IMG/VR virus record: IMGVR_UViG_3300025000_000007
Location: 1-64,000 of that record
DNA: 64,000 nucleotides
Reading direction: 5' to 3' (one strand)
Source of the DNA: a virus
Within the stretch, counting starts at the first letter, position 1; every line of letters begins with the position of its first letter. This document shows, piece after piece, positions 1,023 through 60,958 of the stretch. The position numbers and the translations under genes are program-made. The notes below the pieces were generated by a model that worked only from the letters and a program-made list of their open reading frames with translations, ran no database searches and was not told the origin of the DNA.

Positions 1023-3554
1023 TCATAAAGCCCCAATTGGCCCGCAGACCATTTCTTCACCTGTCTTTTCATTGTCAAATGAACATTCAAATAATCCCTC
1101 AATCCAATTTACAAAGTCTTTTCCTCTTTTAGTTGTGTATTCTTCGCTTACTGCACTTGAAATTAAGTTATAATCGTCTGATGAGCACACAAAGCGGAAA
1201 TCATCATAACCGAGTAACCGCCCCTTCTTTTCAATAAGTTGTTCTTCTGTGTGTGAACGTCCCATTTCATATTCGATTGCATACATTTTACCGTTAATTT
1301 CAAAGGTTAAATCAGCCCCTTGATTGTGGTCAGATGAACATTTAATCCCCTTTGATACTAGATAGCTCTCCATCTGGACAACGCAGACAAAATGCTCAAC
1401 AGTCATTTTACCTAGACCTTCCATATTCATTTGATTCCCGCTTATTGCCCCAGGTCTGTGCCACATAGTACAAGTTCCGCGTCCTGTAACTGAGGGCAGC
1501 CTGATAGCTTTTACCCACCCTTCCGATGCAAGATAAGAATCATTCCCTTCTACCCAATCTTTGAGAATCACGCCATGATGGGAAACCAGATGTTCATACT
1601 CTGGAAGTATCGAATTTTGAGTAAAACCGATAATCGGAGATGGTCTTTCTTTTTTATATCTTCCTTTGATTATTTCTGTTTCTTGCTCAGTTGCTTCAAA
1701 TCTGATAGGTATTTCTTCCCGCCGACTAGAGATTAAAAGTAGTCCTTCGCCCTGTTCACATTGGAGCAAATTCTCCACTGCCGTTTTAGAAAGTCCAAAA
1801 TACTCTCTAATGGGTCCTACTTTAGCTTCATCAAGTGTAGCACCCATGACAATTCCCATTGACATATTAGTCTTGAACTCTTCATCTACGTTATTCTTTA
1901 CAAGGTCACCGGGGTTCTGAGTCATTAGCCAGAGCGTCATCCCCTGCGCTCCACCCATAGCAACCGTATCAAGAAGGAAGTTACTTAAGTGTGAGCTCCT
2001 GAAAAAGACTCTGGCTTCATCTACAGCCATTATGGTTTCTTTCTCTAGATCAGTTCTAAAACGTCCTCCTACTATGCCAGTAACAAGAACATTCATAGCA
2101 GGCTTTATCTCTTCGTCTACACCTGAAATATCAATTACAATATAGTCCTTTGAGAAGTCTATATTATTTCCTCTCTTGTTCAGGTAGCAAAGGGAACCAT
2201 CTTCTCCGATTGGTGAAGTTTTCCTGTATAATGCTCCTGCGCTCTTCCTGGTTTCACTTGTATTGCTATCGTTCTCCATATCCTGTCTAAATAATTCTCT
2301 GAGATCTGAAAGGACCGGAAAATCTTTTTTCCATGTTTCCGGCTTGGTTCTTATTATTCCCTTCTGCTTGTAGAGTTTATGAAGTGTATCTTCAAGATAG
2401 CCTTTTGCCGCGCTTGAAAACTCTCCTTCCATCCAGACAGCAAAGAAGTTTTTCAAGGTTCTAATATGCTTGAAATATGCTGACGAATATGCAGCCGGTG
2501 AGTTTCCCATAGTTTGAGGGTCAAAGATGATCTGTAGAGGGTTTATAGACTGTCCGAATTCTCCGATGTCAATAACCGTTGCCCCGTCTCCGTAGTATTC
2601 AGCTACAGCCCTGTAATCAGTCCTTGAGTCTGCCTTTGGAGTAATATAGACAATCCTCTTTCCTAGCATGTCATGAGCACGCATTAAAAGCATAGATACG
2701 GTAAACGTTTTTCCTGACCTAGTTGGACCGAAAACCACCATATGCTGAGATGCCAGGGATGCCAGGTCTATTATTACCTCGGCATTGGTTTTCTTATCTT
2801 TCCCGAAGTAAAGCCCCTGTTCATCAATGCGAGAATTCAAAGAGGTTGATGTACAAAGAATTGCGGCTGTATCAGAATGTACCCGAATCCAGAATCTTTC
2901 GTCAGATGCTGGATAAGGTCTTGAAGCTATGAAAGCGGCTTTCATCATATCGTAAGGGATTGTATATTCTATAAGTTCAGATTGTAGGATTCCTAATATA
3001 TAAGATTCAGCCTGATATACTTCAGTTTCACCGCCCATTATCGTTATTATGAAAGAAGCATTGTAAACATTTTGAGAGTTATAGTATATTTCGTTGAAAG
3101 TTGCTCTGATATCAGTAGCTTCATTCTCAAGCTGGATATCCCCTATAGAGCCTTTCGTGTACTTCTTAGCGGTTTCCTGATCCATAGAATTGCTAATATA
3201 TGCCTTCTTCAATAGTTCGCTTGTCTCAGCCCTTGGGATCTTGATTAATCCAGTACAGATGTCTATCTTACAACCTACAAAGGAAAGCTCCTGTATGCGC
3301 TCTATCGCTCTGCTAGTCATACCCGGAGGAATCCCGTTAACGTCGTCTTCTTCTGATAGTCCTCCAACTATGCACCTCACATAAGTATGTTCATCAATGC
3401 GCAGGTGTGTATCATATTCTTCAAAGCGGTCAGGGGATATTAATCTTGAGAGGTCTTCCTCTTCTTCTTTATCGAGTATGTACTCCTCTGCTCTCATATT
3501 AAAGAGCCTTAGCCCCCTGCAGTAATCTTTCATGTATATTATAGGATTAATCAT
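1023..3554 (-). CDS. virB4: VirB4/TraC-like (HerA/FtsK superfamily) transfer ATPase with C-terminal PD-(D/E)XK-like domain
   Basis: Walker A GPTRSGKT preceded by HMVVFG, INPL motif, Walker B MAVDEAR, LMTQNPGDL and GEGLL motifs. The C-terminus has H...GADL...AIEYE. Confidence 0.85.
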   Translation of the reverse strand: MINPIIYMKDYCRGLRLFNMRAEEYILDKEEEEDLSRLISPDRFEEYDTHLRIDEHTYVRCIVGGLSEEDDVNGIPPGMTSRAIERIQELSFVGCKIDICTGLIKIPRAETSELLKKAYISNSMDQETAKKYTKGSIGDIQLENEATDIRATFNEIYYNSQNVYNASFIITIMGGETEVYQAESYILGILQSELIEYTIPYDMMKAAFIASRPYPASDERFWIRVHSDTAAILCTSTSLNSRIDEQGLYFGKDKKTNAEVIIDLASLASQHMVVFGPTRSGKTFTVSMLLMRAHDMLGKRIVYITPKADSRTDYRAVAEYYGDGATVIDIGEFGQSINPLQIIFDPQTMGNSPAAYSSAYFKHIRTLKNFFAVWMEGEFSSAAKGYLEDTLHKLYKQKGIIRTKPETWKKDFPVLSDLRELFRQDMENDSNTSETRKSAGALYRKTSPIGEDGSLCYLNKRGNNIDFSKDYIVIDISGVDEEIKPAMNVLVTGIVGGRFRTDLEKETIMAVDEARVFFRSSHLSNFLLDTVAMGGAQGMTLWLMTQNPGDLVKNNVDEEFKTNMSMGIVMGATLDEAKVGPIREYFGLSKTAVENLLQCEQGEGLLLISSRREEIPIRFEATEQETEIIKGRYKKERPSPIIGFTQNSILPEYEHLVSHHGVILKDWVEGNDSYLASEGWVKAIRLPSVTGRGTCTMWHRPGAISGNQMNMEGLGKMTVEHFVCVVQMESYLVSKGIKCSSDHNQGADLTFEINGKMYAIEYEMGRSHTEEQLIEKKGRLLGYDDFRFVCSSDDYNLISSAVSEEYTTKRGKDFVNWIEGLFECSFDNEKTGEEMVCGPIGAL

Positions 3555-4402
3555 AATATCGCCCTCTCGCTTGATATCTCTCTATAAAACTTCTTAATTT
3601 CCTTTGCGTCTTCCATTTGTCTAGGTTTTAGATTCGCTCTTTTCATGTTCAGTAAGAGTCCATCGAGAACCGCCCCCATTGCGATTTCTGCTGATTGAAC
3701 TGTGTCATGTTTTCCTAATCCAACGAACGCATAATAGCGATACATCATAATGTGGGTTTTATCACCCATGACTTTCTGAAGGATGCCATTGAGATGTTCA
3801 GCCCTTTCCTTGCTTCCTGCCTTGTTTGCTACTTTCATAATGTACTCGATTATTGCTTTTCTAGGGTTGACTTTACTAACAGCGTGGATCTTGAATATCC
3901 TTCCAGCGTGTAGCCCATCAACAAGACCTTTCATAACAAGTGAGTGCCCCTCTCTTTCATCTTCTGTGATTCTCTTAGGGTTAAGTGCAATAACTACCGC
4001 AAATTCATTACCAGTGAACTCTAAAAGCCCCTTTTGGTGTATTTTCCTAAGTGGATAAACTGTACTTAAGAACGAAACACCAGCAGTAAGTTTATTTTTT
4101 ACATGTGCTCCTGTCCGTTCTCCTATCCAGAAGTTTATTTTAGTCCACAATCTTTCCGCTTTTTTAGGGTTCACTCCGATGTATTTTAGCCAGATGCCTC
4201 CGAGAATAAGCAATCCTATAAAACATGTAAACTGTATCCGACTATCAGTATATTCTCTCATTACTGCAAGCAGGCGAGAGCTTAAGAATCCAAATATAAA
4301 AGTAAACCGGAACCAAGCAGAACGCGGGTTTGAATATGCGCTTTCCCTGTGATCTTTTATTACATTCGGTTTTCTAGGCTGCGTATATGGAGTTTCTGCC
4401 AT
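3551..4402 (-). CDS. Membrane protein of the transfer module (VirB3/PrgI/TcpE-like position)
   Basis: Two N-terminal hydrophobic helices followed by a soluble domain; stop overlaps the VirB4 start. Confidence 0.5.
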   Translation of the reverse strand: MAETPYTQPRKPNVIKDHRESAYSNPRSAWFRFTFIFGFLSSRLLAVMREYTDSRIQFTCFIGLLILGGIWLKYIGVNPKKAERLWTKINFWIGERTGAHVKNKLTAGVSFLSTVYPLRKIHQKGLLEFTGNEFAVVIALNPKRITEDEREGHSLVMKGLVDGLHAGRIFKIHAVSKVNPRKAIIEYIMKVANKAGSKERAEHLNGILQKVMGDKTHIMMYRYYAFVGLGKHDTVQSAEIAMGAVLDGLLLNMKRANLKPRQMEDAKEIKKFYREISSERAIL

Positions 4403-4403
4403 G

Positions 4404-5345
4404 TTATACCCTCCTCAGTACTGCTAATTTACCTGTTTTCGTGATGGTTCCAAGTCCCCAATTACTAAACATCCATTTGTAATTTATATATGCGATTAAT
4501 AGAAACATTACAATGTAACCGCCTGCCCCATCTTCCCATCCTACCCATTTTATACAGATCAGGCAACCACATGCAATAAATAGACTGACAATCTGTAGAG
4601 ATACTATCTTGTGGTACTTGTTCCAAATCCAGGTTATTTCCTCATGCCAGAATCCTGAGAAATACCATACACCTAGAATCCTTGAAGCCGCGTAGACTAT
4701 AACAATAATCCAGGGTCTTATTATGAAAAATACAGCTACCCCTAGGTCAACGATACTCATAAAAAAGTACATCCAAGCGTTATCTAGGGAAGGCTCGATA
4801 TAATCAAGTACATTCATCATAGCGTACTGAGAGATTACAGTACACAAATCAAGTGTTGCGAGCACATAATACGGAGTGAAATATGCTACAATGCACATCA
4901 CAGACCCCCAGACAAATCTCTCTTCCGAAAGATCCCGCTCTCCGAGAACTTTTGAATATGCCTGGTAATTAGTTTTTGCTATTGTTGTAGCCGATGCCAT
5001 CCCAAAAATAAAAATAACTACCAGAATACCCCACGTATAATATGTGTTCTTCTCGAATTTTGCAATTTCGGGGATGTTCTGTGGCTCCGGGTTCATTGTC
5101 ATGAATTTTACGAGCGATGCTCTTGTAGCTCCGTATTCTGAACTTATGTTTTCATCTAATCCTGGAGCATACATCCCATCTATCCATATTGAATTTATAG
5201 CATCAGCCGCGGATCGGAGGATCATTTCCCAACCCTTTAAAAACATATTTGCCCCTGCTTCTTCTGGTCCGGGTCCCTCTGCGGCATGCACTGGAGCCGC
5301 CAAAAGAAATATTAAAAACATGCTAAAAATCATTATATTTTTCAT
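4404..5345 (-). CDS. Polytopic membrane protein, VirB6/CedA-like
   Basis: Signal peptide MKNIMIFSMFLIFLLAAPVHA (start moved from 5417 to ATG 5345), about 6 TM segments, in operon with VirB4. Confidence 0.6.
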   Translation of the reverse strand: MKNIMIFSMFLIFLLAAPVHAAEGPGPEEAGANMFLKGWEMILRSAADAINSIWIDGMYAPGLDENISSEYGATRASLVKFMTMNPEPQNIPEIAKFEKNTYYTWGILVVIFIFGMASATTIAKTNYQAYSKVLGERDLSEERFVWGSVMCIVAYFTPYYVLATLDLCTVISQYAMMNVLDYIEPSLDNAWMYFFMSIVDLGVAVFFIIRPWIIVIVYAASRILGVWYFSGFWHEEITWIWNKYHKIVSLQIVSLFIACGCLICIKWVGWEDGAGGYIVMFLLIAYINYKWMFSNWGLGTITKTGKLAVLRRV

Positions 5346-5389
5346 AAAAAAACAGCTCCTAAAAAAATCAATATATCCAGGATGTAGTA

Positions 5390-5737
5390 TTACATCCCGA
5401 ATTTTCCAGAAAACCAAACAAACAGATTGTAGAGGACATATGCTCCAATGCCAATCCAGAATACACTTATAGCGTGATTCTTAGAATTAGATGCCTGTTG
5501 ACTGTGCCCCCTCCTAGCTTCGATTGCACTCCACGCAGAAAAACCGAATATCCCTCCGATGATTATAAGCTGAAACAGAGAGTAAATATTCGGGATTGTC
5601 AATTCGGCATATGGCTGTATGGAAGCGTCTAAACCGTTTATTACTTTATCTGCGAATCCATCCCCTGGCGCTGCAAGTGCATTACCTGCTGACATCAAAA
5701 CCGAGCCAGCCCCTAGTACAATTTTTCTAAAGTTCAT
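5390..5737 (-). CDS. Pilin-like protein (VirB2/CedA1-like)
   Basis: Cleavable-looking leader ending ALA-A, then two hydrophobic helices with a short basic loop; first gene of the operon. Start set at ATG 5737. Confidence 0.55.
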   Translation of the reverse strand: MNFRKIVLGAGSVLMSAGNALAAPGDGFADKVINGLDASIQPYAELTIPNIYSLFQLIIIGGIFGFSAWSAIEARRGHSQQASNSKNHAISVFWIGIGAYVLYNLFVWFSGKFGM

Positions 5738-5781
5738 TATATCACAGTTGAATATTCTTTTTTGGTATATACTAAGCATTG

Positions 5782-5835
5782 CATGTATATATATGTTATG
5801 TTAGCGCATGGTATTGCAAAACATATATATACATG
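5782..5835. promoter_or_regulatory. Divergent promoter formed by a perfect 16-bp inverted repeat
   Basis: CATGTATATATATGTT (5782-5797) and AACATATATATACATG (5820-5835) lie between the transfer operon and a divergent AbrB-like gene; each arm contains a TATA element. Confidence 0.75.
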
Positions 5836-5879
5836 ATTGTTTAATATTGGTATCAGGAAAATTATAGAGTGATTCGATA

Positions 5880-6074
5880 ATGACTATACACAAATTAAAA
5901 GTAAGAATGAATATCAATGAGGATAGAGGCTCAGGTACTATTTATCTTTCAAAAGAACTCGTACAAAAAATAGTGCCACCTGGAACAGTAAAAACATCAG
6001 GTATAAGAGAAAAAGCAGACTTGATTGCATACTATGACGATGAGAAAGACGAAATATTAATAAAAGAGCCATAA
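5880..6074 (+). CDS. AbrB/SpoVT-like small DNA-binding protein
   Basis: 64 aa with GSGTIYLSKELV...DEILIK pattern. Confidence 0.55.
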   Translation: MTIHKLKVRMNINEDRGSGTIYLSKELVQKIVPPGTVKTSGIREKADLIAYYDDEKDEILIKEP

Positions 6075-6090
6075 TGAAGAGGATATCGAT

Positions 6091-6384
6091 TTGTATACAA
6101 AAATTGGAATAATACTATTATTAGCTCTTTTAACCTCTGGCTGTTTAGCCGATGCATTGACACAGGAAACTTATGTAGATCCGGATAATGAAAATAATAC
6201 TTTAATCTTGTTTGTGGATGGTAGTTACAGATGGCATCAAACAAATTATGATAAATCTGGAGAATGGTACGAAGAAGAAGAAATAATATATCTCAATATC
6301 GATTCTTTTTTTGGTGATCAAAAATTAATAAAAAAAGGAAGTTCTGTTTTTTGGTCAAATGGTGCTGAATGGGTAAAAAATTAA
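6091..6384 (+). CDS. Small lipoprotein (possible entry-exclusion protein)
   Basis: Hydrophobic leader with lipobox LTSGC; adjacent to the transfer operon. Confidence 0.6.
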   Translation: MYTKIGIILLLALLTSGCLADALTQETYVDPDNENNTLILFVDGSYRWHQTNYDKSGEWYEEEEIIYLNIDSFFGDQKLIKKGSSVFWSNGAEWVKN

Positions 6385-6393
6385 ACCTTTTTT

Positions 6394-9300
6394 TTAAATG
6401 AATTTACCCACTACCATATAAAGAACTTTTAATATTGCCCTTCCGTATATTCCTATTATCACGATAAAACTGAGTAGGGGATAACTCAATATCTTTAAAC
6501 TGTCGTCTTCTATTACTTCATACTCAAATTCTTCAATCTCGAAGGAATCATACGGGGTAACCACGGTAACATTTAATTTTCCAATATCGAATGGCTCTTC
6601 TATGCGTACTCCTCTCGGATTCTGTGTTATTTGCTTTCCTGAGATGGACCACGAATCTATTGTTTCATATCGAGTACTCTTAAATCCATTTTGTGCTGTA
6701 CCGATGTAACCTAAGAGCCTGCGTTCAGTGCATTCAGATTCATTATAGGATGTATCAACTCTTACTATTCCGTCTATCTCGGGTGTATACACAATAGCAT
6801 GGGACCCATTATAATGAGTTACATACACTTTTGGAGGCTCGAACACAGGGAATATATCAGGCGTATCATATTTTTTTACAAATTCTACGGTTTCGCTTTT
6901 TTCCTTGTAGTAAGGGATCTTCACGGATTGCCCTAACACATTATAAGTTTTGTACGCTTTTACTTCGTACTTTGTTTTTACGGTTAGTTTTACGGTTAGT
7001 TTTCCATCATTTGAGGTAAGTTTTGTACTTGTTTTCTGGCTCACTGGTCTTTTTGCCAGATTCTCAGTTCCAAATAGGACTATCGCGCATTTATCCGGGC
7101 TTTCTGGAATGTATGTTTTATTCCCTATGCGTATTTGCCCACTGTATCCTGTGATATCTATCCATGCGTCTGTATAACGTCCTTTATGTGCCCATTCTTT
7201 CTGAGGCGCAAGCGTTCCCTGCTCAAGATATGCACCGTCTGAGAACTCCATATCAAGTACATCAAATATTGAATCAAACACTTCCTCACTATCCTCAATA
7301 CTAGGAGGATTCTCATATGAAATATCCTTCGATATCCCTTGAGTCTCTAACTCATCGGCATCCACAAATTCATTATCATGAATATACACGTTTTCAGTTC
7401 CATCATGCAGCCAGATTGCCTTAAGCCCAGGATCAGAAAACGTATTAAATCGAACTTCTATATCTTGAGTTTTCCAATCAGGCTTCCTTGCATCATAACC
7501 TTTTGAAATGCCTGCATCCCCTATTTGAAGCCCGTTTTCCCCATTTTTATGTGCTCCGTAACTGTCGCCACCATACGAAAAGAATAAATTATTCTCAATC
7601 AGACAGTTTTTGCAGTTATCAAGTCTCGCACAATCCGAGGTTATTCCAGCTATTTTATTATCCTGGAGAACTCCATTTTTCACACACGAGAGGTAGATCC
7701 CTTCATGCTGACAATTTGAAATTATATTATCATAACAGGAAACTCCATCAGCATACCTAATATAAATCCCATCTGAGAAGGAATTATACAATTTCATATC
7801 GTGAATTTCTATATTTCCACCTAAATTATTAGATGATCCCGCAAGAATAATCAATTTCTCGCAGTTGTGCTCTTTTCCTGCGCCATCATTCGCCCATTTT
7901 GAGTCAAAAGCTCCGCAGTTTCCATCTATTGAAAACCCGCAAATCTCGATATCGTGTGGAACTATTGTCTTGTTATCGATGTCTTTAGCAGGGCATCCTA
8001 CAACAGGAATCCCCTCTCTGAACCACCAGGAAGATTCTGAATCAACTCTTACGATAGTTTCAGGTGATCCTATCATGGATGTTCCAGGATAAATCCAGAT
8101 GGTCCCATCTACTACATAGAGTCCGTCAAGATAGACAGTTCCTCCGGTTTTAGAAGCTTCCAGGAGAGCATCGTTAATCTGTTCCTGATCCCTCTTTCCA
8201 TCACAATCTGTAACATAAATATAATTTTCAGGATCTTTTTGGATGTTATCTTTTTTAGCAGGTTCTGGAATTACAATATTATCCAAATCGACTACAATAT
8301 CAGTCTTGCCTTTCGCGCTATCATCCAAAACATTATCAAGAGACACATGAGAATCCAAATCAAGCCTATCAAATGTGTTTTCAACTATCCGTACTTTCCC
8401 GCCAGAATGGCCATTGCCTGAAATCTCGATATCGGATTTCCCGATGTCAGAAAATACATTATCTGTAATTTCTATGTTTTCATCGTCCTGATTGCACAGG
8501 ACATATACCCCGTACCCTGAAATATCAGAAAACTCATTTTTCCTGATTACAATATTATCATATGCTACCTGCTCTTTGTCTGCATCTCCGAAATATACCC
8601 CAGACCTACCACCTTTTTGAATATTATTTTCAATAAGAAGAGTAGTTCCCTTCGCGTACCATGTCCCTCTATATGTAAAAACAGAATCTCCTTCAATATA
8701 ATTATCTCTGACTATGTGTACACCATTATCTGTACTGCCTCGGTTTGCTACAGCCCCATAACCACCGTATATTTTATTATTTGCAAACAGAGAGGTTAAA
8801 GTGCCATCCCCAAACGCATAAAATCCATTACCCGGATGAATCTCATTATTTGTGACTACATAATCAAGGGCTACATTATGAGCGTCTACAACGTTTGCAC
8901 CTGCGATAGTTGCCCCGACCATGTAATTATTTTTTATAATTACACCCCTCACAAGAGTACTTCTTTCATCTGTATTTCCGGTTACGGCATGTCTGCAATT
9001 CTCGATATGGTTATTTTCTACGAGAGCATACGCAGTCCCTGACCATATTCCTACCCCATACCCGGACCCTGGCTTGAGACAGTCATAAATTTCATTGTTT
9101 GAGGCTTCCACATTAAACGAAGAATAAAATGAGATTGCGGACATTCCAGAGTCTTTGAACCAGCAGTCTTTAACTGAGCTATCAATGCAGTATCTTATAG
9201 ATAGTGCCTCATTTGGTGTTGTTTTCCCGCTATCCTGGAATCTAATATTTGAAACGTGAATTTCAATTGGGCGTCTAATCTCATATCTTGGGGAATCAGA

Positions 9301-9831
9301 TAAACCATAGTCTCTCAGGAGAGGTTCATTCAGTGTTACAGTGTTGCCTGATACGCTTTCTATTTTGTAGAGTTCTCCTGTTAGTTGAGGCCCCGTTTCA
9401 TCATCTTTTCCGTAGTCCAGAGGACACCAATATACTTGTTTCCAGATCTTGATCAGGTCATTCTTTTTAACCTGTGAAGCGTCGCTTAATGTAATTTGAG
9501 TATCGCCTTTTTTTGAGGATGTTGGCAGTTTACCTTCTGTTATTTCCGAGCCTTCAAAATATAAACCATTATGAGATCCCGATCCTGTATTTAGATGGAT
9601 GGTAACTGTTCCTTCTCCCTTTAGAGTCAGGCTTTTATCTTTCTGGTAGACCCGGCTTGTAATGTAATAATCCCCTGATGGGATGATTATAGTATCCCCG
9701 TTAGATGCGCTATCTAATGCTTTTTGGATGTCTGTGCCTGTAGTTCCTGATACTGTTATTTCAGCAGCCGTACAGAGATTAATTGAATATAATAAAAGTA
9801 GTAAGATTAATACAACTTTTTTCACATGCAT
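6394..9831 (-). CDS. Secreted, C-terminally anchored protein with two parallel beta-helix domains (pectin-lyase fold, disaggregatase-like)
   Basis: Signal peptide, PbH1-type repeats and a C-terminal TM helix. Domain 1 aligns by eye with the tail spike 48578-50797; domain 2 aligns with 40519-41946. Confidence 0.8.
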   Translation of the reverse strand: MHVKKVVLILLLLLYSINLCTAAEITVSGTTGTDIQKALDSASNGDTIIIPSGDYYITSRVYQKDKSLTLKGEGTVTIHLNTGSGSHNGLYFEGSEITEGKLPTSSKKGDTQITLSDASQVKKNDLIKIWKQVYWCPLDYGKDDETGPQLTGELYKIESVSGNTVTLNEPLLRDYGLSDSPRYEIRRPIEIHVSNIRFQDSGKTTPNEALSIRYCIDSSVKDCWFKDSGMSAISFYSSFNVEASNNEIYDCLKPGSGYGVGIWSGTAYALVENNHIENCRHAVTGNTDERSTLVRGVIIKNNYMVGATIAGANVVDAHNVALDYVVTNNEIHPGNGFYAFGDGTLTSLFANNKIYGGYGAVANRGSTDNGVHIVRDNYIEGDSVFTYRGTWYAKGTTLLIENNIQKGGRSGVYFGDADKEQVAYDNIVIRKNEFSDISGYGVYVLCNQDDENIEITDNVFSDIGKSDIEISGNGHSGGKVRIVENTFDRLDLDSHVSLDNVLDDSAKGKTDIVVDLDNIVIPEPAKKDNIQKDPENYIYVTDCDGKRDQEQINDALLEASKTGGTVYLDGLYVVDGTIWIYPGTSMIGSPETIVRVDSESSWWFREGIPVVGCPAKDIDNKTIVPHDIEICGFSIDGNCGAFDSKWANDGAGKEHNCEKLIILAGSSNNLGGNIEIHDMKLYNSFSDGIYIRYADGVSCYDNIISNCQHEGIYLSCVKNGVLQDNKIAGITSDCARLDNCKNCLIENNLFFSYGGDSYGAHKNGENGLQIGDAGISKGYDARKPDWKTQDIEVRFNTFSDPGLKAIWLHDGTENVYIHDNEFVDADELETQGISKDISYENPPSIEDSEEVFDSIFDVLDMEFSDGAYLEQGTLAPQKEWAHKGRYTDAWIDITGYSGQIRIGNKTYIPESPDKCAIVLFGTENLAKRPVSQKTSTKLTSNDGKLTVKLTVKTKYEVKAYKTYNVLGQSVKIPYYKEKSETVEFVKKYDTPDIFPVFEPPKVYVTHYNGSHAIVYTPEIDGIVRVDTSYNESECTERRLLGYIGTAQNGFKSTRYETIDSWSISGKQITQNPRGVRIEEPFDIGKLNVTVVTPYDSFEIEEFEYEVIEDDSLKILSYPLLSFIVIIGIYGRAILKVLYMVVGKFI

Positions 9832-11671: not shown

Positions 11672-12169
11672 GTGTTTGTGATGGACGATAAATATATTAG
11701 AATGGTTCTTGCCCTACCGGATGAATTCTTCGATGGATGGGAATTAGAAGACGGTGATCAGATATACCTTTGTAGAGACATAGATGATTACTCATGTTCT
11801 GAACAACACGGACTGTATACAATATTTGATAACCTGTTGGCTAACAATGGCATTACATATACTGAAAACTGGCATTATGCTACATGGATGATGTTAGATG
11901 GATTAATACGTCCGATCCCTTCACAGAAACAACTTCAAACTACAATTAAACAACACTGGATAAAAGCAGATGATACAGTAAAAGATTATGACGTTTTGGT
12001 CTTTTTTCAAGATTGGTTTCGGGCGCGTTATGTGTCTAATTGCACATACTGTATCCGATATAAAGAAATTGAAAATGAATCAATTGATTGTATCTGGCTG
12101 AGATACACAATGCATGTTATTTGTAACAAAACATGGAACGGCGAAAGGTGGGTACTAAACGAGGATTGA
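11672..12169 (+). CDS. Hypothetical viral protein
   Basis: 165-aa ORF in a co-oriented gene run. Confidence 0.5.
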   Translation: MFVMDDKYIRMVLALPDEFFDGWELEDGDQIYLCRDIDDYSCSEQHGLYTIFDNLLANNGITYTENWHYATWMMLDGLIRPIPSQKQLQTTIKQHWIKADDTVKDYDVLVFFQDWFRARYVSNCTYCIRYKEIENESIDCIWLRYTMHVICNKTWNGERWVLNED

Positions 12170-12171
12170 AC

Positions 12172-15466: not shown

Positions 15467-15628
15467 ATGGCAGCAAATCAGGTAACTATCCAACGTACTA
15501 ACACAGGACAATTAACCATTACAATCCCTATAGCCATTGCTGGCTCGAAGGGGTGGGGAAAAGGCACGAAATTAGAATTTGTAGATGATAGATATGGAGA
15601 AACTGTCCTGAAGGAAGTGAAAGAATGA
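15467..15628 (+). CDS. AbrB/MazE/SpoVT family DNA-binding protein
   Basis: GQLTITIPIAIA...GWGKGTKLEF motif; stop overlaps the recombinase start (ATGA). Confidence 0.75.
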   Translation: MAANQVTIQRTNTGQLTITIPIAIAGSKGWGKGTKLEFVDDRYGETVLKEVKE

Positions 15629-18095: not shown

Positions 18096-18096
18096 T

Positions 18097-46820: not shown

Positions 46821-46829
46821 GGGATATTC

Positions 46830-54438: not shown

Positions 54439-54782
54439 TAATACTCATCCGCCTGTCTAAATTCAATCGAATATGTCCATACACCAGACCCTTCAGCAAC
54501 TTCCCAGATATCTGAAATCTGATACACATAACATCTAAAATAACTCGCTCCGTCTACAATCAAAGTTGAATAATACTCATTTATCAGGCCCTCGACTATC
54601 GAGAGCTCGGAATCCGTTTCAGCATAACAAAAAAAAGTTTTGGGGAATTGGATTATTTTTGTAGACCGTGAAACGTGAATATCTCCAGAGAGCAATTCGG
54701 TTTCTTTTGTTGCTCGTGAAAGCGTTTTTTTAGGGGTCTGCCAGTTTCGTAGAGATACCCCCGCAAATATCACAGTACTCAT
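54438..54782 (-). CDS. Distal tail (Dit-like) protein
   Basis: Position directly after the tape measure gene; size. Confidence 0.5.
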   Translation of the reverse strand: MSTVIFAGVSLRNWQTPKKTLSRATKETELLSGDIHVSRSTKIIQFPKTFFCYAETDSELSIVEGLINEYYSTLIVDGASYFRCYVYQISDIWEVAEGSGVWTYSIEFRQADEY

Positions 54783-57520
54783 GAGAATATCCCCTTCCTG
54801 CGCCTGTCGTCAGCAATTGAAGATTTTACCGCGTTGATTATTGCCTGCAGGTCGGAATCATTTCTGACATAGTTTGGCCCGATCGAATACCTACTTCCCT
54901 CATAATTTGTTGATGAGTTTGATACACTTGAAACGTTTTTAAGTCCGGTACTCATACCAGAATCAAGCGGGCCCCTTACACTTGAAAGCGCACTTGAGAG
55001 GGGGGTTGATAGTTTCCGAATAGAGTTTATGGATTTTGTCAATGGATCAAGAAATATAAAATCCCAGTTCGGGAGCTCTTTAAACGGTCCCTCTTTCGCG
55101 GGGCTGTTGGGTAGGAGCCTCTTAAGGCCGCTTGCTGCTTCAGCGAGGGAAACTTTGGCTTTTGTTCCGGCTGATGAGATCGCTGTTGATAAAGATTTAC
55201 CAAGAGAGGATGCTGAAGAACTTGACAGACTAGATAACGAGCTGCTTATACTTGCCTGCGCCCCGGACACCGCTGATTTAATTTTATTGACCTGCGCCAC
55301 TGCTGAATTATACAAAGTACTAAGCGCGTTAAGGATTCCATCACTTAGGGATTTAACAAAACTGGAACCAACCGATGATAAATTTACACTGAGTGCACTT
55401 TTAATGGCAGTTGGTATACTCTTAACTTTTGTAATTATATTAGTCGCTGCCGTGATGATCAAATTATATATATTGTTCCATTGAGTCCGCCACGAGTTAA
55501 GTAAACTAACGACGGCCGAGACAATTGAATTAAAAACATTCCTCAAATTATTATATAACGATGTGATTAGACTGTGCAAAGTGCTAGATGCTGATGAGGT
55601 AGCACTATTAAAAATATTCCAGTTTGATCTCCATGTATTGAGAAGGAAACTAACGGATGATATAATTAAATTGAATATGTTGCGAAGTCCATTATATAGC
55701 CCCGTAGCAACTGAAACTATCATTCCTGATATAGTCGAGTACGCATTTTTGAGTGCGTCCCATACCACACCAAACTGTTGTTTTAGAGTGGAAACACTCA
55801 TTATAATAGCGTGCCATGTATACTCAAGCTGTTGCCAAAGTGCGTTTGCCTGAGACTTGAGCCATGCCCAAGCAGCAGCAGCTTTTCCCTGAATGTCCCA
55901 CCAATTCTGAGTCCATGCGACAACAAGGAGACCAACTACAGCTATAATTGCAAGGATCGGTATATTTATTGCTGCTAATACCCCTGCCATTGCAGGTGCT
56001 ACCCCTGCCAATACGCCACCGGTTGCAAACAGAGCAGCGAACGCGCTGAATGCTGTTGATATTGTCCCGACTGCTGTTATTACTGATCCAATTATTATAA
56101 GGAGAGGACCAAGAGCCGCGATAAATGCAATGAATCCGAGGATTACAAGTTTTACAGGCTGTGGAAGTGCGTTAAATCCTTCTGCGATGCTTCCTATGAT
56201 TGGGATAATATATTCAAGTGCAGGGACTAATGTATCAGTTACAAGCGGGACAAGAGTATCTTGAAGAATCGGTATGAATTTATCACCCATTTCTATAGTT
56301 AATGAGGCGAGTGTGGCTTTTATTTCATTGAGTGACTGTGTGGAGGTTTCCGACATCGTTGCATATGCTGCACCCGTTGCCCCCATAGAATTACCCATCT
56401 CACCCAATACACCGGTGTATATTCTTCCCTCATCGGCAGATAAAGCCAGTATAGCATTTCCGGCTTCCTGAGATCCAAAATAATCCGACACCCTCGCTTT
56501 CGTATCTCCAAACTTAACCCCCATCATTTCAAGTGCCTGTTCGATGGTTCCCCCGCCTTTTCGGAAATCGTCAAACGTTTGACCAGTCAAATCTTGGAAA
56601 TCGAGTGCGAGAGCTGAAGTTGGATCTGACAACTCAAACATTGCCTTTCCCATTTCTTCAGCACTTGGGACAGTTTTCAACATCCCGTCGTTCATTATTT
56701 GAATCGCTTGATCTAAAGTGCCGCCGGATGCTATAAACTCAGGGAATGATTTGCCAGAAAGTTCTTTAAATCTGTCTGCTGCGACGGACCCCTCTTTAGA
56801 TAGTTCTGATAATAACTGTTTTAATTGAGTCGTTGCCTCACTGGTAGGGATGCCTTGCAATGTCATGGCTGCAAGTGCGGAAACAATATCTCCAAAAGGT
56901 ATTTTCAGAGATGCAGCAACCGACCCAACGTTTTTATAAGAATCTGAAAGTTCTTCAATTGTTGTTTTCCCTAGCCTCATGCCGGTAATCATTATATCTG
57001 ATGCTTGGCCGGCTGAAATTACATCTGATCCATAAGAGTTTACAACACTTGTCAGCCCGTCCACTACTGTAGTAATGTCTGTAGCTCCGGCTATTGCAAG
57101 TTTTGAAGCGACTGTTAAAAAATCAAAAACGTTATTAGGGGGGACACCTGCGCTTAGAGATTGATATAGAGCAGGAACTACAGTTTCAGGGAGAATCCCC
57201 ATTTCTTTTGAAAAATCAAGAACGTCCTGAGTCATTGAATCCATTGCTGACTGGGATGCATTTGGCAGGAGAGTAAAAACCTCAGCCATCGACTTTTCAA
57301 AATCAACCGCCTGTTTGGTTACAAGTGCGATTCCTGCACCGGCTGCAAGTATAGGGGCAGTTATTCCGGCAGTCATTCCAGCACCGGCTGAACTCATGCT
57401 TTTGCCAACACTGGAAAGTTTTGTACCAACGTTTCCAATCTCGGTCTGAACTTGAGCGAATGTTTTGCTCAGTTCTTTCATGTCTCCGATAATGGATACG
57501 ATTAGTTCACCGACTGCCAT
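54779..57520 (-). CDS. Tail tape measure protein (TP901-like)
   Basis: 913 aa; FE..M..V, ALYQ..SAG and GKTT..EL core; hydrophobic middle; Trp-periodic repeats; PNSPAKEGP. Confidence 0.92.
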   Translation of the reverse strand: MAVGELIVSIIGDMKELSKTFAQVQTEIGNVGTKLSSVGKSMSSAGAGMTAGITAPILAAGAGIALVTKQAVDFEKSMAEVFTLLPNASQSAMDSMTQDVLDFSKEMGILPETVVPALYQSLSAGVPPNNVFDFLTVASKLAIAGATDITTVVDGLTSVVNSYGSDVISAGQASDIMITGMRLGKTTIEELSDSYKNVGSVAASLKIPFGDIVSALAAMTLQGIPTSEATTQLKQLLSELSKEGSVAADRFKELSGKSFPEFIASGGTLDQAIQIMNDGMLKTVPSAEEMGKAMFELSDPTSALALDFQDLTGQTFDDFRKGGGTIEQALEMMGVKFGDTKARVSDYFGSQEAGNAILALSADEGRIYTGVLGEMGNSMGATGAAYATMSETSTQSLNEIKATLASLTIEMGDKFIPILQDTLVPLVTDTLVPALEYIIPIIGSIAEGFNALPQPVKLVILGFIAFIAALGPLLIIIGSVITAVGTISTAFSAFAALFATGGVLAGVAPAMAGVLAAINIPILAIIAVVGLLVVAWTQNWWDIQGKAAAAWAWLKSQANALWQQLEYTWHAIIMSVSTLKQQFGVVWDALKNAYSTISGMIVSVATGLYNGLRNIFNLIISSVSFLLNTWRSNWNIFNSATSSASSTLHSLITSLYNNLRNVFNSIVSAVVSLLNSWRTQWNNIYNLIITAATNIITKVKSIPTAIKSALSVNLSSVGSSFVKSLSDGILNALSTLYNSAVAQVNKIKSAVSGAQASISSSLSSLSSSSASSLGKSLSTAISSAGTKAKVSLAEAASGLKRLLPNSPAKEGPFKELPNWDFIFLDPLTKSINSIRKLSTPLSSALSSVRGPLDSGMSTGLKNVSSVSNSSTNYEGSRYSIGPNYVRNDSDLQAIINAVKSSIADDRRRKGIFS

Positions 57521-57523
57521 TTT

Positions 57524-57796
57524 TTACCTCGAAACCTGCCAAGCACCGTTCTTTATTGCTCCATCTGGATGCAATTCTTTGAATTTATCGACACTTATTA
57601 TTTTTTTATCGTCGCCTGCTATCAATTGGCCAAGAACTCCAAAAAATACCCGAGCGTCTGTCTTTTTAGCTTCCCACCCGTACCGGTGATACAAAACCAA
57701 CTGATCCAGACTGCAAAAATCAAGGAGATAATCCGGTTTCGCCCAGGAAAACATAATTCCGAGCTGGGTGATTATCTCCCAAATACTTAGTTTTTT
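57524..57796 (-). CDS. Tail assembly chaperone, -1 frameshift extension (gpGT-like)
   Basis: The -1 frame is open from the slippery site AAAAAAC into the ORF ending at 57524. Confidence 0.75.
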   Translation of the reverse strand, partial: KKLSIWEIITQLGIMFSWAKPDYLLDFCSLDQLVLYHRYGWEAKKTDARVFFGVLGQLIAGDDKKIISVDKFKELHPDGAIKNGAWQVSR

Positions 57797-58167
57797 GAGT
57801 ACCCGCCTTCTCCGGGGCTCGTCTCTGCCCCTACGCCGGTGTTGTTCACGGAGGCGAATACATATTGTACAAATGCCATTAATGTCCCTATGTCGACGTT
57901 GTTAAGCATCCATTCTTTTGTCACTGTTTTGTTAGATCTCTGACAAACCATAGAAACGATATCAAGAGTATCGCCCAGGACATCAAGGTCCAGAGTTTCA
58001 TCAGTCATGGATTCCATTTTTCGGACATCGTGCTTTTTTGAGAAACTGATAAATTCCAAAGCTGCACGAGCAGGAATAAAAGTTACATCGACTTCTTCCC
58101 CTCTTAGTTTTGCGATTCGTTTTGGAGGGGAAAGGATGTCGAAATCTTTTAGCAGGGAATCACTCAT
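57787..58167 (-). CDS. Tail assembly chaperone (gpG-like)
   Basis: Between tail tube and tape measure genes; ends TCA AAA AAC TAA. Confidence 0.75.
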   Translation of the reverse strand: MSDSLLKDFDILSPPKRIAKLRGEEVDVTFIPARAALEFISFSKKHDVRKMESMTDETLDLDVLGDTLDIVSMVCQRSNKTVTKEWMLNNVDIGTLMAFVQYVFASVNNTGVGAETSPGEGGYSKN

Positions 58168-58970
58168 GCTGTAACACCCTGTTCATCAACAATTGTAAAG
58201 AGTTGTGCTCCGGCGGTTAGGGTGGGGTCACATACACCAATCAGGGTAATTTCGGGCATCATTGGCTCATCTCCATCATCAGCCGGAAATTCAAGTTTTA
58301 TCCCGCCTTCTGTGGTTGCACTGTAGACAGTTATCTCGAATTTCTTACCGGCTGAATCGGTGTTGGTGAGTCTCACAACTTTAGGAGTAATTGTGTTAAG
58401 TCCACCTGAAGAAAGTGATCTGGATGCAGATGGTGTATACGTATAATTAATCTTGATGCCTTCCCCGGTTGAAATCACAGCAGACGCGGAAACCCTGGCA
58501 ATACATGTCCATCCCTCCGAATCCACATACAAAACATAATCAGTATTCTGTACGGCTGCATTGTCTGATGCGTCCGTAACTGTGACCCCTGTAACAACTG
58601 TCCCTGCCCCGTTCTTGTGGTCGAGTCTTACGCCCGTTGTCCCTGTCAGTGTGTGCGTTTCCCCGGTGACCGCAGTTGAATCTCCTGCGACGGCTGCATA
58701 GGTATCCATCCCGCCCCTGAGAGTATTCAGGTTTGCGAGGTTGACCTCCATGATCGAAAATGTCACCGATGCTTCATGATTTCTAACAGCTATCTGAGAT
58801 TTTGGGGCATTATCTGGTGCCAGATAAACTACATCGAATTTTTCCTCGAATTTGACTCCCTGTGCTGCTCCCAGGTTGACAAGTGATCCGACTGTCGCGC
58901 CTACTTCCACTTTTGCAGATCCAAACCGGATTTGATTCGAATCCTGAACTGTTGTTTGGTATGTAGTCAT
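58164..58970 (-). CDS. Major tail (tube) protein
   Basis: I.FGSA.V...NLGA..G...E pattern; position in the module. Confidence 0.75.
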   Translation of the reverse strand: MTTYQTTVQDSNQIRFGSAKVEVGATVGSLVNLGAAQGVKFEEKFDVVYLAPDNAPKSQIAVRNHEASVTFSIMEVNLANLNTLRGGMDTYAAVAGDSTAVTGETHTLTGTTGVRLDHKNGAGTVVTGVTVTDASDNAAVQNTDYVLYVDSEGWTCIARVSASAVISTGEGIKINYTYTPSASRSLSSGGLNTITPKVVRLTNTDSAGKKFEITVYSATTEGGIKLEFPADDGDEPMMPEITLIGVCDPTLTAGAQLFTIVDEQGVTA

Positions 58971-58979
58971 TTTTAGACC

Positions 58980-59354
58980 TCATTTTTTATAAATAACTTT
59001 GAAATCGTATGGGATGTGATAAACTCCAGTTTCCGATTCATATAAATCAGGAGCTTCCAGAGGGATTATTCTGATAATTGTAATACCACTTATAGTGCCT
59101 GCATAGCCATCCAGAGCAGTTTCAACTACCTGTTTGAGATTTTGGCACTCTAAATAATCTTCTGTCCAGCAGGATATCTGAAAACGTGGCACTCCGGCAA
59201 TCTGTTTATATTTGTTTGAAATTTTTGAGAATGATAACGCAGGTAGTGCGCAATCCAGCGGCAGGACTGCCGGATAGACACGAGTACCTACGAGCGCATA
59301 AACGCCTGAATTTGCTACCAGGATTGCTCGAACTGCCTCGTCTATTGTGGTCAT
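58980..59354 (-). CDS. Tail terminator (DUF3168/gp17-like)
   Basis: LVGTRVYP..LP...P, RFQISCW and ALDG motifs. Confidence 0.8.
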   Translation of the reverse strand: MTTIDEAVRAILVANSGVYALVGTRVYPAVLPLDCALPALSFSKISNKYKQIAGVPRFQISCWTEDYLECQNLKQVVETALDGYAGTISGITIIRIIPLEAPDLYESETGVYHIPYDFKVIYKK

Positions 59355-59758
59355 TTGTATTTCCCAAATATCTGCTGAAGTTTCGTTTCAAACGCTCTCT
59401 GGATCTCTGCTGTGTTTTCATCGAGTGCAGGTCTAAGATACGGTCTTGCAGCCTGATTGAATCGCCTGCCTCGTTTATCAGGTCCGGTATATCCAAACTC
59501 GATCCTGGCAGCGTAATTCATATCAGAACCGACTTGAGATTCGATCCTTCCTGGTTTTTCGATGTTTTGCAGTTCTTTTATAGAGCGTCTCAGGTTTCCC
59601 GTGTCTACAACGACTCTCATTTTTGCGTCTCTTTCGACGACTGCTGCACCTGCGGAAACGGCTTGCGATAGTGCTTTTTGACATTCATAGTCAATAGCTT
59701 TAAATACTCGTTTGAGTTCGTTAATTCCCTCAATTTTGATCGTGAATCCATCAGCCAC
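59351..59758 (-). CDS. HK97 gp10-like tail completion protein
   Basis: IEGINEL, VDTGNLRRSI, YAARIEFG and ARPYLRPA; GTG start at 59758. Confidence 0.85.
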   Translation of the reverse strand: MADGFTIKIEGINELKRVFKAIDYECQKALSQAVSAGAAVVERDAKMRVVVDTGNLRRSIKELQNIEKPGRIESQVGSDMNYAARIEFGYTGPDKRGRRFNQAARPYLRPALDENTAEIQRAFETKLQQIFGKYK

Positions 59759-60362
59759 GTTTCGACACCGCCTTGAGTGAGGCTTCGATGTGGTCAATGG
59801 ATGATAAAAATAAATTATACAGTGTATCCACTGCTGTGATTTCATAAGTGTGATTATATCCTGGTGTGGTTGTAGTGAGTGTATCACCCGCTTCTACTAC
59901 AGCAGCAGCCGGAAGAAATACCATCGGCTCCGAAACTGTATATTTTCCAGAATCTTGATAAGAAAACGCTCCACCGAATCGACTTGTATTTGAAAACTTA
60001 CACGCATAAGCTGTCGTTTTTGTAGTCTGTGTTGGTGTACCGACTGCATTAGTTTGGGGGACAGAAGCCCCGGATGAGGTAGCACTTCCTGGGGTAAGAA
60101 TGCTTTTATTATCAGTTATAGATTCAGCCTGAAACGTTCCTGAAACAGCGTATATAGTGAGATATCCGGCTGCTGTTCCTGCTGCCCAAGAACCTGATGA
60201 CAAAACTAAACTCTTTATAATCCCGGTTGCGTGCGAGACTGCCCCCGTAAGTGTGTACCCTGCTGTAAATGCTACAGATCCAGCAGTAAAATTAAGGATA
60301 TGATCCTGAGAAGTTGAAAGAATGTTGCAGGTCTGTGTCATGGAAAAGTTAAGGGAGTTCAT
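59751..60362 (-). CDS. Head closure/head-tail joining protein with inserted beta domain
   Basis: Position in the module; C-terminal GD.L....YEI..V...H.E pattern. Confidence 0.6.
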   Translation of the reverse strand: MNSLNFSMTQTCNILSTSQDHILNFTAGSVAFTAGYTLTGAVSHATGIIKSLVLSSGSWAAGTAAGYLTIYAVSGTFQAESITDNKSILTPGSATSSGASVPQTNAVGTPTQTTKTTAYACKFSNTSRFGGAFSYQDSGKYTVSEPMVFLPAAAVVEAGDTLTTTTPGYNHTYEITAVDTLYNLFLSSIDHIEASLKAVSKRG

Positions 60363-60736
60363 TAAGATTCTCCGTCTACGGTTCCAAAACCCATCCTGCC
60401 AGATACGATAGAAAAGCCAGATGATCTATATTTTCTTATATAGTAAGTGGCCTTGTCTTCGTAATCCTGGATATCTTTGTCTATGGTGTTCTGTGCTTCG
60501 GAATTGCCGTTTTTTACTCTGGATGCAAGTTCCCCGGTGGTTCTCATCCTGCGGAGTGTAGCAGCACAAGCAGCGTTTTTCCCTGCAAGTATGAGAGTAG
60601 CATTTGATTCATCTGATGAACCTGCCCTTTCATATACCTCCGTGGCCACATCTGCGATTATCGCGGTGATATCCACATCTGCAAGCGTGGATGAGTATAT
60701 TTTTGCCCGGATGTCAGCAACAGAACACAGAGCCAT
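60362..60736 (-). CDS. Head-tail adaptor
   Basis: LCSVADIR N-terminus, helical, downstream of the capsid gene. Confidence 0.6.
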   Translation of the reverse strand: MALCSVADIRAKIYSSTLADVDITAIIADVATEVYERAGSSDESNATLILAGKNAACAATLRRMRTTGELASRVKNGNSEAQNTIDKDIQDYEDKATYYIRKYRSSGFSIVSGRMGFGTVDGES

Positions 60737-60744
60737 TTAACACC

Positions 60745-60954
60745 TTACTTTCTACCCTTCTCTACTGCCTGTGCAATAATCTCAGGTTCGGCGATCTTTT
60801 CAATTATGATTACGGAGTTTCCGAGCCGTTTAGCCTCTTCTTCAGAGCAAATAAATTCTTGACCGGTTTTATAAACGATCTTGGTTTCTACTCCGTCTAT
60901 AATTTCACCTGTTGCAAGGTGACTAACTCGGACTCTAACTTTGACATTTCCCAT
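60745..60954 (-). CDS. Small head-associated protein
   Basis: Y..G..F..SEEEAKRLG motif directly after the capsid gene. Confidence 0.55.
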   Translation of the reverse strand: MGNVKVRVRVSHLATGEIIDGVETKIVYKTGQEFICSEEEAKRLGNSVIIIEKIAEPEIIAQAVEKGRK

Positions 60955-60958
60955 GTTA

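Follow-up and report, generated by a model that had tools for sequence, protein, structure and literature searches.

A candidate minimal type IV secretion-derived gene cassette in the genome of a tailed virus

The gene cassette and the virus genome that carries it

The DNA analyzed here (the window) comprises bases 1-64000 of the 73,429-bp IMG/VR virus record IMGVR_UViG_3300025000_000007, and the subject of this study is a gene module on the minus strand at 1023-9831. Its genes are co-oriented and tightly packed, and they encode candidate components of a type IV secretion system (T4SS) together with a large surface protein (Table 1). A preliminary description of the sequence had listed a co-oriented four-gene operon, an anchored beta-helix protein, and divergent open reading frames (ORFs), and all of these ORFs were found at their positions; likewise, the operon end at 1023 faces convergent plus strand ORFs at 29-841. 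In the databases, all five module proteins are unannotated or named "HerA-like".

The record belongs to the class with direct terminal repeats, its CheckV completeness is 100, and its ends carry an exact 116-bp repeat. A head-tail module had been reported on the same contig as the cassette, and tape measure, tail spike, capsid, portal, MuF, and terminase genes were indeed identified. By Pfam, the large terminase matches Terminase_6N (6.7e-07), the Mu-F-like head protein Phage_Mu_F (1.1e-13), and the portal protein Phage_portal (1.8e-04), whereby the portal and the terminase C-domain score below the Pfam cut-offs. A DUF2341 tail protein is also encoded. Because terminal repeats, a CheckV value of 100, terminase, portal, HK97 capsid, and tape measure are found on one molecule, the record is the complete genome of a tailed virus (Caudoviricetes). 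The host probably belongs to the Methanosarcinales, as suggested by the nearest genomic relatives of the module, which are found in Methanosarcina and Candidatus Methanoperedens assemblies, and by a virus protein with a Disaggr_assoc domain (3e-26). A disaggregatase-like candidate lysis gene is located at 40519-41946. ARAGORN found no tRNA gene in the window. The stretch is present in four public sequencing runs of one groundwater study.

Several observations show that the module is part of the virus, as had been assumed before. The terminal repeats and the CheckV value apply to the molecule as a whole, and a search for att-like bracketing repeats around the module yielded merely short imperfect repeats. 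A public contig bridges 7281-10632, and the depth is approximately uniform between 800 and 12000, in runs that may stem from the source sample; none of the listed contigs, which are short, spans the downstream border at 1023. Further evidence comes from related viruses. A scan of viral contigs with a single protein was empty, whereas the family alignment then gave five IMG/VR loci, three of which are family members. All three related IMG/VR records (G001-G003) have retained the cassette together with a terminase, which is 58%, 63%, and 20% identical to that of the window virus. One related record has a 69%-identical capsid gene, and G003 contains a clear portal gene and shares little else with the window virus. 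The cassette is flanked by the Mu-F-like gene on one side and by the scaffold and capsid genes on the other in G001, by the terminase and head-tail genes in G002, and by the terminase (25.3-26.6 kb) and portal (39.1 kb) genes in the genome contig G062:C1. In total, it is present on four other terminase-bearing contigs, in three of the four inside the head-gene block, and its genes have the same orientation as the terminase gene in four of the five viral contigs. Its presence on the terminase-bearing records of relatives means that the link to viruses is real, and the possibility that close VirB4 homologs are never linked to capsid genes does not apply, because the relatives carry terminase, capsid, and portal genes. 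A search of the phage collection yielded eight unannotated contigs, all with less than 25% identity.

The first bases of the window differ from the rest. At 1-800, directly after the terminal repeat, the depth is 3- to 10-fold higher, the public contigs contain several single-base variants, and four alternative joints were observed, e.g., from 350 to 443 with 33 other letters between. This is a variable or repeated region that is common to other molecules in the sample.

Table 1. Features of the module and of the structural genes of the virus. Positions refer to the window unless indicated otherwise.
Feature	Position	Strand	Evidence and remarks
VirB4-family ATPase, C-part, 843 aa	1023..3554	-	Walker A GPTRSGKT at residue 276, Walker B IMAVDE at residue 508
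C-terminal extra domain of VirB4 C-part, residues ~640-843 (~200 aa)	1026..1637	-	predicted restriction-endonuclease-like (PD-(D/E)XK-like) fold
Split-off VirB4 N-part, 283 aa	3551..4402	-	N-terminal hydrophobic hairpin and soluble domain
VirB6-like polytopic membrane protein	4404..5417	-	337 aa from TTG; 313 aa from ATG at 5345, signal-peptide-like start
Pilin-like small membrane protein	5390..5779	-	likely start ATG 5737, 115 aa
Small divergent ORF, 64 aa, possible regulator	5880..6074	+	homolog with 48% identity in metagenome locus L084, likewise in the divergent position
97-aa ORF, unverified as gene	6091..6384	+	lipobox-like N-terminus read by eye
Surface protein, 1145 aa	6394..9831	-	Pfam Beta_helix 3e-28, NosD 1e-16; PHROG tail and tail-spike families ~1e-19
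Surface protein, conserved module-specific core and anchor, residues ~832-1145	6397-7338	-	
Surface protein, second beta-helix, residues ~548-830	7342-8190	-	
Surface protein, tail-spike-like beta-helix, residues 37-487	8371-9723	-	
Tail spike, 739 aa	48578..50797	-	Pfam Beta_helix 4e-18; beta-helix at residues 211-661
Tape measure	54779-57520	-	PhageMin_Tail 6.7e-27
HK97-type capsid gene	60959-61828	-	Linocin_M18 1.5e-15, Phage_capsid 9.2e-06
Morphogenesis block including tape measure, head-tail connector genes, and capsid	54779..61828	-	
Portal, MuF-like protein, terminase	65342-70010 of the record		past the end of the window

Assignment of the module proteins

The preliminary description had named three of the products VirB4, VirB6-like, and pilin-like. 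All three labels hold, with support that decreases in this order. The start of the gene for the 843-aa ATPase overlaps the stop of the upstream 283-aa gene by 4 bases. The ATPase matches Pfam AAA_10 (PF12846, 3.2e-09) and DUF87 (7e-08), as well as the VirB4 domain of Thermoanaerobacter (PDB 4ag5_A, E 4.6e-20, residues 244-630). The best-scoring curated VirB4 model is NCBIfam NF045975 for Mycoplasma-type VirB4 (3.7e-37), and alignment of the ATPase family with bacterial VirB4 by hhalign gave 99.94% (E 3e-37, residues 41-632 on 254-835). The cut-offs of the curated VirB4 models are nevertheless missed, with 127.5 of 590 bits for NF045975, 72.7 of 325 for NF045971, 24.8 of 643 for TIGR00929, and 23.2 of 567 for TIGR02746, and the identity to VirB4 proteins of haloarchaeal, Firmicute, and Mycoplasma plasmids is only about 20-24%. 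The family is a separate deep branch outside of the curated subfamilies, within the VirB4/TraC/TrbE superfamily, to which the ATPase belongs as judged from these comparisons.

The product of the upstream gene had been described as a protein with two transmembrane segments. A 283-aa membrane protein is indeed encoded at this place, but its identity is more specific, because it is the detached N-terminal part of VirB4. In a relative, the two genes are fused and encode a VirB4 of 1073 aa, and the profile of the 283-aa family aligns to residues 20-273 of this protein (hhalign 98.65%, E 5e-16). In agreement with this, the first ~250 positions of bacterial VirB4 have no counterpart in the 843-aa protein. 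Direct matches to the N-terminus of bacterial VirB4 are weak, both with NF045975 (E 0.037) and with hhalign, where the family was compared with one Mycoplasma VirB4 and with bacterial VirB4 (E 0.0074 and 0.0077, ~5% probability). The genes for the two VirB4 parts of the related virus G001 are separated by an inserted YopX-family gene (7033-7440), which is a homolog of a gene at 12133-12498 of the window (YopX, 7.5e-18).

The C-terminus of the motor consists of an extra domain, which is present in all 17 VirB4 homologs tested. Five of its residues do not vary among 26 family members, namely H721, D748, E761, E763, and K776. An AlphaFold model of the domain has a predicted local distance difference test (pLDDT) value of 87.2 and a predicted template modeling score of 0.81. 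Foldseek retrieved nothing from the PDB at E<=0.001, and the weak list below (E 3e-3 or worse) comprises nearly exclusively proteins with a restriction-endonuclease fold, i.e., YaeQ, AF1548, EcoT38I, NucS, Bax1, Hjc, XisH, PspGI, and FokI. Superposition with VIA-align gave a similar picture, with Cdn1 (Z 7.0), Can2 (6.6), and Bax1 (6.5) followed by restriction enzymes and Hjc (Z 5-7). There was no Pfam match, and a profile search of the PDB sequences was empty. Taken from the model, the domain appears to be PD-(D/E)XK-like with a non-canonical motif, and a nuclease activity of the motor may be inferred.

For the polytopic membrane protein no match was found in Pfam, NCBIfam, or PHROG, and none of 24 database relatives has a Pfam domain. 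An AlphaFold model that was built from 13 homologs (pLDDT 72.9) was superimposed on 48,161 chains with VIA-align. Rank 1 was TrwI/VirB6 of R388 (7o3v_F; Z 11.0, root-mean-square deviation 3.9 Å, 212 of 261 residues) and rank 2 was DotA of the Dot/Icm T4SS (Z 8.8), while unrelated helical proteins began at rank 3 with Z 7.3. The gene is located directly upstream of virB4 in all relatives. The evidence from the model for a VirB6-type fold is good but not conclusive.

The weakest of the three assignments is that of the small membrane protein, for which "pilin-like" describes a predicted architecture. It has a signal peptide ending in ALA/AP, which is followed by two hydrophobic helices with a polar loop between them. 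This topology has been retained in 16 of 16 homologs that have almost no sequence in common, and the gene is found within the cassette in all contigs examined. The nearest clusters in the ESM-Atlas (0.90-0.92) contain proteins with DUF2976, DUF4134, or DUF3852, which we take to be small membrane proteins of conjugative elements. No Pfam or NCBIfam match was obtained, the best PDB profile had an E of 1.1 and represented unrelated proteins, and hhalign of the family against the pilin-like protein of Mycoplasma gave 0.5%.

The surface protein has an N-terminal signal peptide and a C-terminal hydrophobic membrane anchor, and three regions can be distinguished between them (Table 1). That it shares a domain with the tail spike of the virus had been noticed before and is borne out, because its region 37-487 and the region 211-661 of the tail spike are 42% identical over 457 residues (BLASTP E 2e-109). 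In contrast, paralogy with the disaggregatase-like putative lysin could not be substantiated, as the best BLASTP E was 0.077 and the two proteins have only the Pfam family Beta_helix in common. Minimal modules encode anchored proteins of 288-350 aa, which align only to the C-terminal ~300 residues and the anchor of the surface protein. Therefore, it is the C-terminal core that is conserved, and the beta-helices were added in particular lineages. An ESM-Atlas search with the core gave no usable match.

Two small ORFs are located between the pilin-like gene and the surface protein gene on the opposite strand. The former label "AbrB-like" of the 64-aa protein was not confirmed, since there was no Pfam match apart from CDC48_N with an E of 0.19. 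For the 97-aa ORF, neither a family match (Pfam, NCBIfam, PHROG) nor a homolog in G001-G003 was found, so that its earlier designation as a lipoprotein is left with the N-terminus listed in Table 1 as its sole basis.

Carriers of the cassette and comparison with known systems

The absence of a relaxase and of VirD4 from the window had been remarked upon, and it extends to the whole record as far as VirD4 and the relaxase family PF03432 are concerned. Six-frame searches of all 73,429 bases with the coupling protein and FtsK models PF02534 and PF01580 gave signals solely on the P-loop of VirB4, below cut-off, and a relaxase search, which was confined to PF03432, found nothing. Among 49 proteins encoded in the record that were scanned with Pfam, there was no relaxase, coupling protein, or tyrosine integrase, and general scans of this kind did not identify plasmid maintenance genes.

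The VirB4 family is present in 26 of 284 species genomes of Methanosarcinales (E<=1e-20). The genes were found at 36 places, from which 13 contigs were examined after the exclusion of short ones. All 13 have retained the full cassette of pilin-like protein, anchored protein, polytopic protein, VirB4 N-part (separate or fused), and VirB4. A Pfam terminase is encoded in five of the 26 VirB4-bearing genomes, but only in G062 does it share a contig with VirB4. Our own terminase profile detected one of 26 and was too narrow, because it missed the terminase of G062; thus, these low figures for virus linkage are lower bounds. Most genomic copies are found without linked capsid or terminase genes.

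The other copies have diverse neighbors. Three are chromosomal, with genes for a phosphate ABC transporter, a methyltransferase, and a glycosyltransferase in G267, alkaline phosphatase, PsiE, PspA, and Trm1 in G236, and a TPR giant, URO-D, and LiaF in G255. The alkaline phosphatase and PsiE genes of G236 (locus L063, G236:C6; 787-2556 and 11270-11833) are found beside the cassette on the same strand, and the PstS- and PstC-like transporter genes of G267 (L064, G267:C19; 6284-9097) are likewise adjacent to it. The two loci are close relatives and do not represent independent cases. The phosphate-starvation neighbors are a lead for DNA uptake as a source of phosphorus. Plasmid-like contexts are characterized by Orc1/Cdc6 in G098 and G035 and by Prim-Pol in G107, and a 34-kb metagenome contig repeats the layout of Orc1, cassette, and ArdC. 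ArdC is an antirestriction-type protein that is tied to the entry of DNA into a recipient. A protein with an ArdC-N domain (1.9e-06) is encoded in L066 (G098:C180; 11165-11977), L088 (12361-13254), and L085 (4082-4900), about 0.9-3.2 kb downstream of virB4, with the smallest distances in L085 and G098 and the largest in L088; the cases belong to one plasmid-like lineage, which also has Orc1/Cdc6. In G263 (L070 and L071, G263:C14) a 2.9-kb direct repeat with 99% identity is found at 2-2917 and 31940-34856. It contains an Ssb-like gene and part of a Y-family polymerase gene and flanks about 29 kb with the cassette; either an integrated element or a segmental duplication may account for this arrangement.

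A scan of metagenomes yielded 80 loci, eight of which are family members; the other 72 are bacterial VirB4 loci with about 20-24% identity, many of them from the gut. In a VirB4 tree with bacterial VirB4 as the root, the five copies from viruses are dispersed among the others: five changes of carrier are needed, and five are also enforced by the well-supported branches alone. This distribution means that the cassette has moved repeatedly between carriers. It is thus mobile and common to viruses, plasmid-like elements, and chromosomes, and it is not an invention of viruses.

The cassette resembles several systems without being identical to any. Ced and Ted are described in excerpts of Beltran et al. 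(2023; PMC9905601) as minimal archaeal derivatives of T4SSs that import DNA without a relaxase. The same excerpts give the parts CedA, CedA1, and CedB, and TedA, TedC, and TedB, respectively, for Sulfolobales and Thermoproteales, and this list of VirB2-like, VirB6-like, and VirB4-like proteins is equal to that of the cassette, in whose record no PF03432 relaxase was found; the small protein with its cleavable-looking signal peptide is also reminiscent of TedC as characterized there. However, no sequence relationship is detectable past the P-loop, and the CedB model reaches 36 bits compared to a cut-off of 700. Moreover, the cassette has a split VirB4, a nuclease-like C-terminal domain, and an anchored surface protein as a fixed fourth component, and it is present in Methanosarcinales rather than Thermoproteota, on viruses, plasmid-like elements, and chromosomes.

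The order of a pilin-like protein (129 aa), a membrane protein, and VirB4 is also found in the FA/FATA type of mating-pair formation systems of monoderm bacteria, exemplified by an integrative and conjugative element (ICE) of Mycoplasma (Mbov_0395 to Mbov_0397; NZ_LR214994.1). The position and the size of the pilin-like gene are equal, and the best-scoring curated VirB4 model is of this type (NF045975, 3.7e-37). Yet it reaches 127.5 versus the cut-off of 590 at about 22-24% identity, there is no profile likeness of the pilin-like and membrane proteins, and the ICE has a coupling protein next door, for which no counterpart was found in the virus record. In archaea, conjugative elements encode homologs of VirB4 and VirB6 and no recognizable relaxase, according to excerpts of PMC6563490. 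These give VirB4/TrbE together with VirD4/TraG as the signature of conjugative plasmids and ICEs (Sulfolobus pNOB8/pING; thaumarchaeal ICEs), in contrast to the virus record without VirD4. None of the elements treated in these excerpts is a tailed virus, and the sole connection to viruses that they mention is a provirus located within an ICE. The plasmid-like carriers with Orc1/Cdc6 or Prim-Pol are nevertheless similar to archaeal conjugative plasmids. Phage-plasmids such as P1, N15, and SSU5 also combine the genome of a tailed virus with plasmid-type functions, but, as far as excerpts of PMC12282955 go, they move as phages and persist as plasmids without a mating apparatus, in contrast to the T4SS-like module found here.

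A literature search, which covered main texts as distinct from supplements, did not uncover a description of the Methanosarcinales cassette or of a T4SS-like module in a tailed archaeal virus. The main texts of the surveys PMC9796341 and PMC13573593, taken without their supplementary gene tables, are silent on VirB4, HerA, secretion, and conjugation. We class the cassette as a deep-branching minimal T4SS-derived kind with a split motor that ends in a nuclease-like domain, the carriers of which include tailed viruses.

Elsewhere in the window, a small serine recombinase of 177 aa (15625-16158, plus strand; Resolvase 9.2e-24) adjoins two large tail-fibre-like genes (16680-21123, minus strand), which have no Pfam match. 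This arrangement could be an invertase-type switch of the host range. An island on the plus strand (45218-47543) encodes a RAMP-superfamily protein (3.4e-09) and a protein with a PAPS-reductase domain (3.1e-13). In addition, the plus strand encodes a radical-SAM protein at 14252-14983 (8.6e-11) and a 468-aa protein at 33632-35038 with a Gp3-like "recombination directionality factor-like" domain (1.1e-41).

Possible functions of the cassette

We propose that the region is a minimal T4SS-derived module for the translocation of DNA across the membrane, which is integral to the complete tailed virus, and that contact-dependent transfer of the DNA of its carrier is the most likely use; we give this reading about an even chance. 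The VirB6-like protein would form the membrane channel, and a hexamer of the split VirB4 would dock on it via the membrane N-part and power both the assembly of the pilin-like protein and the passage of DNA. The nuclease-like domain of the motor might cut or nick the DNA substrate and thereby take the place of the relaxase and the coupling protein that were not found. The anchored surface protein might make or clear the contact with a neighboring cell, and its tail-spike beta-helix would recognize or degrade the same envelope polymer as the virion; since the anchored protein and the tail spike have exchanged this domain, they may both act on one polymer, possibly methanochondroitin. As a result, the carrier would pass its own DNA from cell to cell upon contact, which would open a second route of spread beside virions. 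DNA as cargo and self-transfer of the carrier are favored because a nuclease-like domain is found on every motor, an ArdC-type gene is a neighbor in one plasmid-like lineage, and the carriers are mostly mobile. A bolder version, which we regard as doubtful, is that the virus spreads both by virions and by T4SS-like pumping without relaxase and coupling protein, using the nuclease of the motor and choosing recipients with the tail-spike domain, and that the cassette is the missing conjugation apparatus of methanogen plasmids.

Several points weigh against transfer of the carrier's DNA. The lack of a coupling protein and of a PF03432 relaxase means that this cannot be a textbook conjugation system. 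Three chromosomal copies are found amid housekeeping genes, with no mobile-element genes seen, and such copies would fit a Ced-like import in the service of the host no less well than export. Assignment of the pilin-like protein is drawn from topology, position, and language-model neighbors, with negative sequence and profile tests. The VirB6 match (Z 11.0) is under the safe level of the tool for helical bundles, and Foldseek finds no match for the polytopic model in the PDB. The matches to nuclease folds are modest, with Z values of at most 7.0 and Foldseek E values of at least 3e-3, and the D...ExE...K spacing departs from the canonical D...(D/E)xK. None of the four public runs that contain the stretch is listed as an RNA run. 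In addition, the parts, their order, their conservation, and their carriers are shown, whereas DNA transfer is inferred, and its direction cannot be read from a sequence.

The serious rival is import, because the parts list is Ced/Ted-like, and it is helped by the chromosomal copies beside phosphate-starvation genes. Such a machine would pull DNA into the carrier cell, where the fused nuclease would process the incoming strand. We consider this rather unlikely, and the same holds true for a variant in which the virus would scavenge DNA from lysed neighbors for nucleotides, phosphate, or recombination and the chromosomal copies would serve the host. Import is in agreement with the minimal, relaxase-free composition that excerpts of PMC9905601 report for the known importers. 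It also accords with the lack of a coupling protein in the virus record and with the three plain chromosomal copies, two of which are beside phosphate-starvation genes (G236 and G267), although these two loci are related and count once. Yet the curated CedB model recognizes nothing but the P-loop (36 bits at a cut-off of 700), and the recognizable contexts are mostly mobile, i.e., five viral and at least three plasmid-like, as a device for self-transfer predicts. A neighbor with an ArdC-N domain is also a usual feature of DNA arriving in a recipient cell. A surface or secretion device that does not handle DNA, e.g., a pilus or adhesin for aggregation or a machinery for protein secretion, virion exit, receptor destruction, or superinfection exclusion, seems distinctly unlikely to us. 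It would explain why the module is found inside or beside late morphogenesis genes in four of five viral contigs and why the surface protein carries a tail-spike beta-helix, and no route is known to us by which tailed viruses leave archaea without pseudomurein. However, every member has a nuclease-like domain with invariant residues on its cytoplasmic motor, and the same cassette is present on plasmid-like elements and chromosomes that have no virions to release. Moreover, the tail-spike-like beta-helix is limited to the lineage of the window virus and does not belong to the module core, and the virus has a separate candidate lysis gene, the disaggregatase-like gene at 40519-41946.

It is quite improbable that the cassette is a selfish passenger or that an assembly chimera has joined two molecules. 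Its movement between very different carriers, its varying place in virus genomes, and the raised depth and alternative joints of the first 800 bases are what one would expect in these cases. But five separate assemblies have placed the cassette on terminase-bearing contigs, all ORFs are intact and their motifs conserved, and the upstream border is bridged by a contig with even depth. Furthermore, the surface protein has swapped a domain with the tail spike of its own virus, which requires co-residence and argues for use. An anti-virus defense against competitors, built from a HerA/VirB4-like ATPase and a nuclease in the manner of MADS- or HerA-type systems, is hardly credible. It is suggested by a PADLOC match to mad8 (E 6.4e-17, residues 248-623), by weak HerA and DndH matches on the P-loop, and by the nuclease-like C-terminal domain, whereas the VirB4 profiles score far higher (127.5 bits; hhalign E 3e-37), four of the five module proteins have no PADLOC match, and VirB6-fold, pilin-like, and anchored proteins are foreign to MADS and HerA systems. 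The identity as a defense system was rejected because the VirB4 profiles outscore mad8 and only one of the five proteins has a PADLOC match.

Contact-dependent transfer of the carrier's DNA thus remains the preferred reading. In the literature searched, no description of conjugation or of Ced-like DNA exchange in Methanosarcinales was found. Because Methanosarcina offers good genetics, the cassette makes the movement of mobile elements of methanogens from cell to cell testable. The recurrence of a T4SS-type module amid terminase, portal, and capsid genes blurs the line between viruses and conjugative elements, and it is not reported in the excerpts of PMC12282955 and PMC6563490. How archaeal systems manage without a relaxase is named as an open problem in the excerpts of PMC9905601 and PMC6563490. 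The fusion of VirB4 to a nuclease-like domain suggests a way in which they may do so.

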